A DNA stretch of 64,000 nt. Source: Candidatus Saccharimonadales bacterium. Lineage in GTDB: Bacteria; Patescibacteriota; Saccharimonadia; Saccharimonadales; UBA7683. A program made the translations under genes and the position numbers. Location: positions 136,480-200,479 of the forward strand of contig JAXMAA010000001.1 in assembly GCA_046350615.1 (NCBI GenBank). The letters are read 5' to 3'. Shown here piece by piece: positions 27,590-30,500 of this stretch (positions are counted from its first letter, which is position 1; every line of letters begins with the position of its first letter). The notes beneath the pieces are model-generated. The model had not been told where the DNA came from. It searched no databases and saw nothing but the letters and a program-made list of their open reading frames with translations.

Positions 27590-30500
27590 TAAAAAGTCAA
27601 TGGACCTATTAGTACGCTTCGGCTCCATACGTTGCCGTACTTCCACCTTGCGCCTATCAACCTGATCGTCTTTCAGGGGTCTCATAGGGAAATCTAATCT
27701 TGAGGTCAGTTTCGCGCTTAATATGCTTTCAGCGCTTATCTGCTCCGTACGTAGCTACCCGGCCATGCCATTGGTATGACAACCGGTACACCAGAGGTAC
27801 GTTCAACCCGGTCCTCTCGTACTAGGGTCAAATCCTCTCAAATTTCCTAACGTCCACACCGGATATAAACCGAACTGTCTCACGACGTTCTGAACCCAGC
27901 TCGCGTACCATTTTAATCGGCGAACAGCCGAACCCTTGGGAGGGGCTTCCCCCCCAGGATATGATGAGCCGACATCGAGGTGCCAAACAGCGCCGTCTAT
28001 GTGAACTATTGGGCGCTATAAGCCTGTTATCCCCGGGGTAACTTTTATCCGTTTGCGCTGCCGATACCACTATCATTCATCAAAAGATGAGGACAGCGTC
28101 ACTAACTCCGACTTTCGTCCCCGCCGATTGTGATCCTCACAGTCAAGCTGGTTTATGCGTTTGTACTATCACTTCGATTTATCCGAAGCTGAAATAACTC
28201 AACGCCTCCGCTACTCTTTTGGGAGGCAACTGCCCAGTTAAACTACCACCAGACACGGTCCTGGAAGCCTGTAATTGGGAATCAATTTCAGGAAATGTAA
28301 CATGCATCATTTTTCAGCGTATCAAAGATGTATCATGTTGCGCATTTATCAGGTTAATTACAGACTGGGTCATCTGCTACATGATAATTGCTACATCTCT
28401 GAAACATGGACTATGTTAACGTTATATATCTTTAATTGCTTCGCACTAAAGTGCTCCAGGAAGAATAAGATTACGGGCTGAAGGGTGGTATTTCACGGCG
28501 GATCTACGGATGCTAGCGCAGGCATCCGCTTCAAAGTCTCCCACCCATGCTACGTTGCAACCTGATTCAATGTCAAGCTGTAGTAAAGCTCCACGGGTCT
28601 TTTTCGTCCTGCGTGACAGACGGCATCTTTACTGCCAATGTACTTTCACCGAGTCCTTCGTTGACAGTGCCTATACGATTACGCCATTCGTGCGGGCTGA
28701 ATCCATCGACAAGGAATTCGCTACCTTTGTGACGGTTATAGTTACCGCCGTTCATCGGGCTTGTGTCTGCGCTAACACATCTCCTTAACCTTCCGACACC
28801 GGGCAGGCGTCAGCCCCTATACATCCACTTTCGTGTTAGCAGACTGTGTGTTTTTGATAAACAGTTCCGCGGGCTCTTTAGCTGCGGCCCCGTCACACTA
28901 TCTATTACTAGATTGTGATCAAGAAGCCGAGCGTCAGATTCTTCTCTTGAGCATTGTCTTCAATATTTTCTCGATTGCTGTAAGAAGTTTAGAAACTTAC
29001 AGACTTAATTTTTTCAGAAAAGAAAACTGATAATTTGCTCCTATCACAGTAATAAATACTGCGACGGGGCACTTTATCCTGTTACGGTCGCTATATTGCC
29101 GAGTTCCTTAACGAAGGTTCTTCTCGTACGTCTTGTCTACTCGACCTGAGTACCTGTGCTGGCTTTACGCGGATATACCACGCGCACACTTGCTTTTAGT
29201 CAATATCACAGAAATTCAACTTAAAGGTCATCTTATTCGTACTCATTTCTGATACTAAATGGATATAACCATGAATCAGTTTCCGTTAATATGCCGCGCA
29301 CAGTGTGCAAAGTATAACTTGTGATGTAAATAACAACTCATTGTCCATCGCCTACGCTTACGCGCTCAATAGGCCCGACTAACCCTGAGATGACGTCAGC
29401 GTACGCTCAGGAAATCCTCGTTTCTTCGACGGACAGGATTCTCACCTGTCTTATGGTTACTCATTCCAGCATTCTCACTTCCTCACGCTCCAGCAGCGCC
29501 TTACGACAAGACCAACGTAGAGAGGAACGCTCCTTCTACTGCTACAGGCAAACTGCAGCCCATAATCTTCGGTATAGTACTTGAGCCCCGTTACATTTTC
29601 CACGCAAGATCTCGACGAGTGAGTGTTGCCACTTTAAATGAATGGCTGCTTCTAAGCCAACATCCTCGCTGTTTAAGAAATCTCACCTTGTTTCCTACTG
29701 AGGTTAATTTAGGGACTCTTTAGATGATGGTCTGGGCTGTTTCCTTCGAGCGACGAGCTTAGCTCCCGCCGTTCTGATCGCCGTGTGATAAAACACATGG
29801 TATTCGTAGTTTGATAGGGTGGGTACTGCTGCCAGCCCCAGTCCCTTTCAGAGCTCTACCCCCCATGTGCGAATTGCACGACGCTAGCTCCTTAAAGCTA
29901 TTTCGAGGAGAACCAGTTATCTCCCAAGCCTGATTGGCATTTCACTGCCACTACAGCTCATCCAAACACTTTGCAGCGTGTCCTGGTGCGGTCCTCCACG
30001 ACATGTTACTGTCGCTTCAACCTGGCCAGCATATCACTTGGTTTCGGGTTCAATCCAGTTAGTACTTATTCGCCCTATTCAGGCTCGCTTTCCACTGGTG
30101 CATCCGTCAAATGACTTATGCTTGCAATCGGCAAATTAACTCGCTGGATCGTTCTACAAAAGCGCACGCCGTCATTGCCGAGGTGGGTTCGACTTTCAGG
30201 TAGGCACTGAGTTTCAGGTTCTATTCTTCACTCCTCCTGTGTTCCTTTCACTCTTCTTCGCGGTACTCGTTCACTATCGATCACGTAATATATTTAGCCT
30301 TAGAAGGTGGACTCTCTAGATTCAGACAGGTTTCCGTGTCCTGCCCTACTAAGAAACCGTATTTCATTACTGAGAGTATGTGCCAGCGCCATTGCTCTAC
30401 ACATAAAGTCAGCTTGGTTTTCGTATACACGGCTTTCACGTTCTCTGGCTAGTCATTCAAACTATTCTACTAACAAAGCGATTTTTTTACTTTGATCATA

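Follow-up and report, generated by a model that had tools for sequence, protein, structure and literature searches.

Heptamer-repeat hairpin arms are shared between helix H79 of 23S rRNA, the P12 loop of RNase P RNA and the ftsA-ftsZ spacer of a Saccharimonadales genome

What occupies helix H79 of the 23S ribosomal RNA (rRNA) in a Candidatus Saccharimonadales bacterium, and why do its words reappear in another structured RNA of the same genome? The question arises from a 64 kb stretch of a metagenome assembly of this member of the Candidate Phyla Radiation (CPR, Patescibacteria), here called the window. Among species-representative genomes, its nearest relatives by IF2 are Saccharibacteria with 55-58% identity. 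The 23S gene of the window has 3321 nucleotides (nt) versus 2925 positions of the covariance model, and a first-pass annotation had placed a large insert at H79. Alignment to the large-subunit (LSU) rRNA covariance model bears this out: 191 nt replace 15 positions, 2229-2243 in the local alignment, between the flanks GAAAUACCACC and GGACCGUGUCUGGUG. Helix names (H25, H45, H79, H88 and others) are those that we take to apply by standard Escherichia coli numbering. We found that the distal arm of the insert belongs to a genome-specific family of paralogous hairpins, which is also present in the P12 loop of RNase P RNA and in the ftsA-ftsZ spacer.

The flanking sequences GAAATACCACCC and GGACCGTGTCTGGTGG lie at 28483-28494 and 28246-28261, respectively. 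The hairpin between them is closed by CCTGGAG at 28454-28460 pairing with CTTCCAGG at 28260-28267, as the cctgga/tccagg pairing proposed earlier had it; the span first reported, 28281-28440, takes in most of the insert but not the whole. The insert consists of two layers, a proximal stem of about 25 base pairs (bp) and a distal arm of 137 nt. Only these distal 137 nt represent the shared module, termed module B, whereas the proximal ~60 nt form a clade-wide covarying helix. Folding predicted a long hairpin with many internal loops, with z = -1.9 for the whole insert and z = -2.9 for the arm.

Covariance-model alignment of the RNase P RNA revealed ~145 extra nt in the P12 loop. P12 is laid out like H79, with a GC-richer, self-complementary proximal stem around the repeat arm (module P), and a single long hairpin is predicted for P12 including its insert (z = -6.5). 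The third copy, module A, scores 120 bits on the plus strand versus 39 bits on the minus strand in nhmmer, and its best-matching strand is antisense to both flanking genes, the frameshifted ftsA and ftsZ. Modules A, B and P align colinearly over ~125 nt with a mean column identity of 69%, and the pairwise identities range from 64 to 69%. In local alignments against dinucleotide shuffles, z reached 7.5 for B-P, 7.3 for A-B and 10.2 for A-P, and none of 1000 shuffles attained the observed score. Shuffling in 7-mer blocks, which keeps the words, left z at 5.0, 4.4 and 7.5 for the same pairs, with at most one of 1000 shuffles attaining the score. A profile search of the 64 kb with the three copies retrieved no significant match beyond A, B and P.

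The words quoted in the first-pass annotation are all present in the rRNA sense and identical to words of the RNase P insert or of copy A. GATACATCTTTGAT at 28321-28334 recurs exactly at 51541-51554 in the RNase P gene, and AGATGTAGCAAT (28387-28398), CCATGTTTCA (28400-28409) and CATGTTACAT (28295-28304) recur exactly in copy A at 3051-3062, 3065-3074 and 3119-3128, respectively. The broader proposal that one word family sits in sense orientation in loops of both 23S and RNase P RNA is likewise upheld by the colinear alignment, the shuffle tests and the profile. The insert had also been labeled CATG-dense. CATG words do occur, but at modest density, with four CATG in module B. As a defining trait, CATG density had to be rejected: the window contains 214 CATG versus 243 expected, other 200-nt segments are equally rich, and relatives use CATT-type words. 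CATG density is incidental and the unit of repetition is a heptamer. In the arms of the window and of related modules, the commonest spacing is 7 nt, both from CAT to CAT in the 5' arms (40 of 71 intervals) and from ATG to ATG in the 3' arms (22 of 55). The arms are therefore best described as inverted arrays of degenerate tandem heptamers, with a unit close to ATGTAGC in this genome.

Several other candidates were considered for the same sequences. Genome-wide words of the uptake type were dismissed, as the 7- and 8-mers characteristic of the modules occur at the expected frequency elsewhere in the window. A presumptive fourth copy at 22420-22570 falls inside the IF2 gene, and its match is weak and due to chance. 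The 12-mer AGATGTAGCAAT is found once more at 39985-39996, in a gene for a DUF11/CLIPPER surface protein, where 16 of 17 bases match module B (BLAST E = 0.63), likely by chance. A group I or group II intron or another RNA family does not fit either: at B and P, the only families that Rfam returned were LSU rRNA and RNase P RNA, and a 137-nt arm is too short for an intron core. The sole match of a relaxed Rfam search around copy A, at 3003-3035, was the sub-threshold ssNA-helicase RNA motif (RF03070; 20.5 bits, E = 0.39). The 3' tail of this motif is a UGUAGCA doublet, and that copy A is built from this unit is probably a coincidence.

Related loci were obtained by scanning metagenome contigs for the two conserved 23S flanks at a distance of 181-241 nt. 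This yielded 24 independent contigs with an H79 expansion of similar size between the same flanks. In most of these loci the proximal stem is the same, and the distal arm follows the same design with lineage-specific words. The comparison with relatives, which the first-pass annotation had put forward as the one that could overturn its proposal, thus gave a mixed outcome that does not refute it: the H79 expansion is homologous and its proximal stem conserved, but the arm words differ between lineages, those of L082 (CATGTTC/GGTACATG) being close to the words of the window. The H79 insert is real and represents an rRNA expansion typical of the Saccharimonadales clade.

Several of these loci hold further copies of the H79 arm within the operon, all in the same strand orientation and with 65-93% identity. 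Across the relatives, arm families are borne by the 23S helices H9/10, H25, H45, H79 and H88 and by the 23S-5S spacer. The proximal stems at H25 are alike in L092 and L098; the arms that they carry are unrelated. The paralogues of L094 are 75-94% identical to each other. The H79 arm of L103, the positional orthologue, has 78% identity to the H79 arm of L094 and resembles the other L094 copies at least as closely. This pattern is the signature of intragenomic copying or homogenisation.

A further heptamer-repeat hairpin of ~155 nt with CTGCTAAATG words was detected in helix 6 of the 16S rRNA of L113 (655-800), and it matches the module profile of the window (E = 6e-11) despite belonging to another RNA and another genome. 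Self-comparison of the relatives' loci brought up other palindromes (L119 11895-12007, L004, L006), which were set aside as they are not heptamer arrays. Some other 23S genes of the Saccharibacteria type have much larger inserts. In L002 (1-545), the H79 site, marked by GACAGTGTCTGG, is directly preceded on its 5' side by at least 540 nt of non-rRNA sequence. L098 (3214-3973, 1990-2365) and L094 (7257-7961) contain inserts of ~700 nt at E. coli 1938/1958 and of ~375 nt at ~2596, and these positions are intron-like.

The proximal stem behaves differently from the arm that it carries. Its 28430-28460 strand is homologous to ..CAATTTGCGAAGCAAATTG.. in 11 related 23S genes, and in an alignment of 12 distinct lineages 95% of cells in the proximal 5' and 3' flanks are paired. 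Thirteen of the 23 pairs have changed on both sides, and none of 500 shuffles matched the observed values. Each flank is also self-complementary in itself, e.g., CAATTTG-CGAAG-CAAATTG. We considered a three-way junction with two flanking mini-hairpins, but only 87% of cells are paired in this model versus 95% in a continuous helix. The continuous helix is preferred because the would-be loop positions covary with each other, positions 25-27 of the two-hairpin model with 62-64. Judging from their self-complementarity, local hairpins on the two strands are a possible alternative conformation.

Table 1. Positions of the modules, their host RNAs and neighboring RNA genes in the window, with words and sites of related arms (L numbers, loci of relatives)
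Feature	Position or site	Strand	Remarks
23S rRNA gene, host of module B	27588-30908	minus	cmscan RF02541, 1559 bits, full length
Whole H79 expansion, long hairpin	28260-28460	minus	closing CCTGGAG / CTTCCAGG; fold predicted
Proximal stem, 5' strand, CCTGGAG + CACTTTAGTGCGAAGCAATTAAAG	28430-28460	minus	self-complementary around GCGAAGC
Module B, distal AT-rich arm	28293-28429	minus	34% GC; degenerate heptamer repeats; nhmmer 120 bits; hairpin z = -2.9
Proximal stem, 3' strand, CCTGAAATTGATTCCCAATTACAGG + CTTCCAGG	28260-28292	minus	homologue in relatives CTGAAATTGATyyyCAATTTCAG, covarying
RNase P RNA, bacterial type A, host of module P	51315-51806	plus	cmscan RF00010, 240 bits
P12 proximal stem, 5' strand, GCTGTG-TGGAA-CACAGC	51438-51454	plus	self-complementary
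Module P, heptamer-repeat arm within P12	51455-51580	plus	126 nt; nhmmer 127 bits
P12 proximal stem, 3' strand, CGTGC-TCC-GCACG	51582-51594	plus	
Module A	3018-3140	plus	ftsA-ftsZ spacer; 123 nt; ~8 tandem ATGTAGC-like heptamers and complements
5S rRNA	27330-27436	minus	
Two tRNAs		minus	
16S rRNA	32597-34058	minus	
Arm words, L081 group			CATTGAC
Arm words, L094, L095, L103			CATTTACC
Arm words, L098			CAATTTTC
Arm words, L082			CATGTTC/GGTACATG
Arm words, L087, L100			AAAGTGA
Arm sites, L092/L097	H25, H79, 23S-5S spacer		86-93% identity
Arm sites, L094 (seven)	E. coli 130-187, 271-371, 538-670 (H25), 1160-1249 (H45), H79, 2405-2431 (H88), 23S-5S spacer		
Arm sites, L098	H25, H45, H79		82-83% identity
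Arm sites, L100	H45, H79		

Since the window derives from a metagenome assembly, the family might reflect mis-assembly or a shared low-complexity composition. Defects of the assembly are indeed clear. The 16S and 23S genes score 861 and 1559 bits versus ~1480 and ~2250-2570 bits in relatives, because conserved rRNA motifs are garbled. Differences between the 16S rRNA and that of L113 cluster in universally conserved motifs, at the 27F, 341, 530 loop, 790-806 and 907-920 sites and at the 3' end; in the 530 loop, GTGCAGCAG-CGCGGTCGCCTGGAGG stands in place of GTGCCAGCAGCCGCGGTAATACGGAGG. In addition, ftsA needs two frameshifts for read-through (2871-4452), and in the region 34610-39184, where relatives encode intact gyrA and gyrB, the window has an open reading frame (ORF) for 168 amino acids (aa) of the GyrB N-terminus (38678-39184) and ~4 kb without long ORFs. 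All three modules are, moreover, AT-rich and repetitive. Set against this, the variable rRNA regions agree with relatives and a lineage-specific gene for 2596 aa is intact, so that the defects hit conserved regions and not lineage-specific sequence. We infer that the garbled motifs are consensus or polishing errors caused by cross-mapped reads of other taxa and not natural divergence; the lineage-specific modules should be little affected. Independent assemblies display the same H79 architecture, as the expansion with the same flanks is found in 24 other assemblies and in L113. The copies have diverged to 64-69% identity and are not collapsed duplicates, and their colinear similarity survives shuffles that preserve the words. 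An artefact or chance is accordingly a very improbable explanation.

The two other sites differ between close relatives. The gene order around rnpB is kept in relatives with 71-80% identical ComM, and P12 is minimal and lacks the insert in L108, L110, L111 and L114; the L113/L114 genome, whose short P12 is thereby included, is the relative closest in its 23S flanks. L106 has a P12 insert of ~125 nt with the same architecture, including a proximal layout (GCGTGC-TAC-GCACGC) as in the window; its first ~20 nt are window-like and the remainder has diverged. Module A was not found in the ftsA-ftsZ spacers of L117, L118 and L119. The closest relatives by FtsZ (94%) have a marR gene and a small ORF at this place and L119 has another gene, while the ftsZ leader beside copy A is conserved. 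The contigs of the nearest relatives (S1 92-97% identical) end at the rRNA operon. Within the window, rnpB shares the strand of comM-infC-rpmI-rplT, unlike in the five relatives examined, all of which have it on the other strand; the difference is either a local inversion or an effect of the assembly. Downstream of rnpB we noted a short repeat, TCTAAGATC.AAGAACTAC..TCTAAGATCT (51813-51836, 51919-51949), which occurs again at 26042-26072.

Filled and empty sites at P12 and at the ftsA-ftsZ junction are what would be expected of a non-autonomous mobile palindromic element, resembling miniature inverted-repeat transposable elements (MITEs), repetitive extragenic palindromes (REP) and bacterial interspersed mosaic elements (BIME), Rickettsia palindromic elements (RPE) or Correia elements. 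Such an element would insert at the DNA level and survive where it is tolerated, in intergenic DNA and in surface-helix loops of stable RNAs. The dispersal of three copies over 64 kb, each a hairpin and each matching the profile on both strands, would agree with this, as would the orientation of copy A opposite to the local genes and the fact that L108, a close relative, has a gene for a Y1 transposase (IS200/RAYT-type). However, we detected no target-site duplication, direct repeats or sharp common ends at A or P, where the homology fades into site-specific stems. The H79 arm always sits on the same conserved proximal stem, which fits evolution in place better than repeated insertion. Furthermore, the window copies are only 64-69% identical and therefore old, their words are at background frequency outside the three copies, and the sole transposase in the window is IS256-like and unrelated. 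Taken together, we regard a mobile element as unlikely.

We favor a reading in which the modules are hairpins of the expansion-segment or intervening-sequence kind that grow by slippage, are copied within the genome and are trimmed by an RNase, and we consider this the probable explanation, though with reservations. Both strands of a helix would lengthen through replication slippage ("compensatory slippage"), and the arms formed in this way would be copied or homogenised between sites of one genome by duplication or gene conversion. Owing to such intragenomic copying or homogenisation, paralogues would stay alike and lineages would drift to other words. In the transcript, an RNase III-type endonuclease specific for double strands may cut out the long AU-rich duplex, as happens to classical intervening sequences. 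After trimming, the conserved proximal stem would remain part of the mature RNA, where its self-complementary strands could then cap the new ends. The module would thus be a tolerated or processing appendage outside the working core of ribosome and ribozyme.

RNase III excises bacterial intervening sequences at H25 and H45 without religation, and these two helices are its classical sites. Trimming is favored because relatives have copies at H25 and H45, because one copy lies in the 23S-5S spacer, i.e., in RNA that is discarded in any case, and because the proximal helices are dyad-symmetric. All arms fold singly as long imperfect hairpins, with z between -2 and -6.

Alternatively, mature 23S rRNA and mature RNase P RNA may retain the whole hairpin, which would form a solvent-exposed rod like the eukaryotic expansion segment ES31, which emerges from H79. 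A retained segment may serve as a binding platform for a lineage-specific factor, and a shared factor would explain the shared words within a genome. The proximal stem is under clear selection at the RNA level, all 17 copies inside rRNA operons or RNase P RNA have one orientation relative to the transcript, and by established E. coli numbering the sites are universal expansion sites, all of which suits a retained segment. So does the sharing of motifs within a genome, which matches eukaryotic compensatory slippage as outlined in the account of Hancock & Dover (1990) contained in PMC1888808. On the other hand, the distal arms have only a loose structure, paralogues do not keep a common pairing register, one copy lies in the 23S-5S spacer outside any mature RNA, and copy A is antisense to its flanking genes. 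Insertions of such size at H25 and H45 are, as is generally known, usually excised in bacteria (PMC11270868). For these reasons we view retention of the whole hairpin as a serious alternative, though less likely than its trimming.

Several observations weigh against growth, copying and trimming as we propose them. An arm shared by RNase P RNA and 23S rRNA is demonstrated in this one genome only, and its conserved rRNA motifs contain the assembly errors described above. In the L113/L114 genome, the arms at 16S H6, 23S H25 and H79 are mutually unlike. Helices of the distal arms do not exceed 12-14 bp, with many internal loops between them; the window copies fold weakest of all (z = -2.3 to -2.9), and the seven paralogous arms of L094 give 8 consensus pairs only. 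These weak folds and the near lack of a consensus structure in L094 show that constraint is loose on the distal arms, in contrast to the tight constraint on the proximal stem. The strong covariation of the proximal stem would likewise be compatible with its retention as an expansion segment. A search of ~0.5 Mb, a sample that is uninformative on this point, retrieved no RNase III signature, and excision is a step that we infer.

A more speculative and rather improbable proposal is that the heptamer arms represent a lineage-specific, sequence-addressed tag carried by stable RNAs, namely 16S, 23S and RNase P RNA, and by some mRNA spacers, and that a co-evolving nuclease or RNA-binding protein reads it. 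If so, selection by a common reader, and not mere gene conversion, would keep the copies alike while the words change between lineages.

Inserts of this kind have been counted before. All 35 Saccharibacteria 23S genes analyzed by Tsurumaki et al. (2024, J Bacteriol, PMC11270868) have inserts of at least 100 bp, and 64 of the 66 inserts are no longer than 250 bp; none contains group I or group II introns, homing-endonuclease genes or ORFs. The authors guessed at RNase III intervening sequences at sites like H25 and H45 and left the inserts uncharacterised (PMC11270868). They come from the same clade and are the same objects as the H79 insert described here. The main text of PMC11270868 does not use the terms "repeat", "palindrom" or "hairpin" and reports no heptamers, no paralogy between sites and no link to RNase P or intergenic DNA. 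For RNase P RNAs of CPR bacteria, Lui et al. (2021) noted "large extensions of helices". Our literature search retrieved no description of one hairpin family common to rRNA helices, a spacer, RNase P RNA and intergenic DNA. What sets this family apart is the sharing of an arm between different RNAs within a genome, whereas intervening sequences, expansion segments and STRR-like repeats are known kinds.

With intervening sequences of bacterial 23S rRNA the modules have in common that they are sporadic extra stem-loops at the tips of peripheral helices, and in relatives they are found exactly at H25 and H45; their removal, too, would do no harm. They differ in that H79 is not a classical site, that the arms are irregular AU-rich heptamer arrays instead of near-perfect stems, and that one arm family spans many helices, the spacer and the RNase P RNA of one genome.

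Eukaryotic expansion segments resemble the modules in their sites (H25, H45, H63, H79), in the duplication of short motifs on both strands of a helix and in motifs that are common within a genome and differ between lineages. According to the part of PMC1888808 that relays Hancock & Dover (1990), compensatory slippage gives the segments of one genome common motifs. Unlike those segments, the modules reside in a bacterium with a single rRNA operon, include colinear paralogues of up to 94% identity, and extend to RNase P RNA and an mRNA spacer.

Tandem repeats of 7 nt that lengthen P12 of a type A RNase P RNA have a further parallel: Vioque (1997, NAR 25:3471) reportedly described short tandemly repeated repetitive (STRR) heptanucleotides in helix P12 of heterocyst-forming cyanobacteria. 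The likeness lies in this lengthening of P12 by members of a repeat family that is reported to be genome-wide; the STRR consensus is reported to differ from the ATGTAGC-like heptamer of the window, which forms an inverted array, occurs in rRNA helices as well and belongs to a Saccharimonadales host.

Some small palindromic repeats lie inside RNA or protein genes, and RNase III cuts them when they are transcribed. REP/BIME, Rickettsia palindromic and Correia elements are like the modules in being dispersed hairpins of ~100-150 nt that are tolerated in stable-RNA genes and vary in presence between relatives. In contrast to them, the copies in the window have no defined termini or target duplications, no cognate transposase lies in the window, the interior of the copies is a heptamer array, and at H79 the arm has a fixed seat on a conserved stem.

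On this evidence, many hitherto unexplained 23S inserts of Saccharibacteria can be described as paralogous heptamer-repeat hairpins. The helices concerned are the ones at which eukaryotic rRNAs carry expansions and those of other bacteria intervening sequences. With its one operon, such a bacterium offers a clean system for the origin of expansion segments by slippage and intragenomic copying and for the processing or use of such appendages. There are practical consequences for CPR genomes as well: together with the garbling of conserved motifs, the arms affect primer design, detection based on rRNA and annotation by covariance models.

The 23S gene of the window contains other large inserts, at 30490-30632 (143 nt, near E. 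coli ~276) and at 28889-29090 (108 + 27 nt, ~1687-1754, H63 region). They bear no relation to the module, and since their sequence is conserved with L113 they are older clade-wide expansions.

Outside the rRNA operon, an IS256/Mutator-family transposase ORF (46938-47951) is bordered by perfect 32-nt inverted repeats (46855-46886 / 47925-47956), and the element at 46855-47956 is probably an intact insertion sequence (IS) element. In relatives, no IS256-type element is found at this place. A 31-nt inverted repeat with 94% complementarity (59073-59103 / 59423-59453) surrounds an ORF for 118 aa (59111-59467), and the Y1 (IS200-type) transposase gene of L108 lies at a place roughly corresponding to 59073-59453. 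Finally, the 2596-aa ORF at 7572-15362 contains DUF285 repeats with a period of 75 nt (16 matched stretches), PKD/Ig domains and a C-terminal HATPase_c match, and it is either a giant surface protein built of repeats or the result of a fusion with the neighboring ORF.

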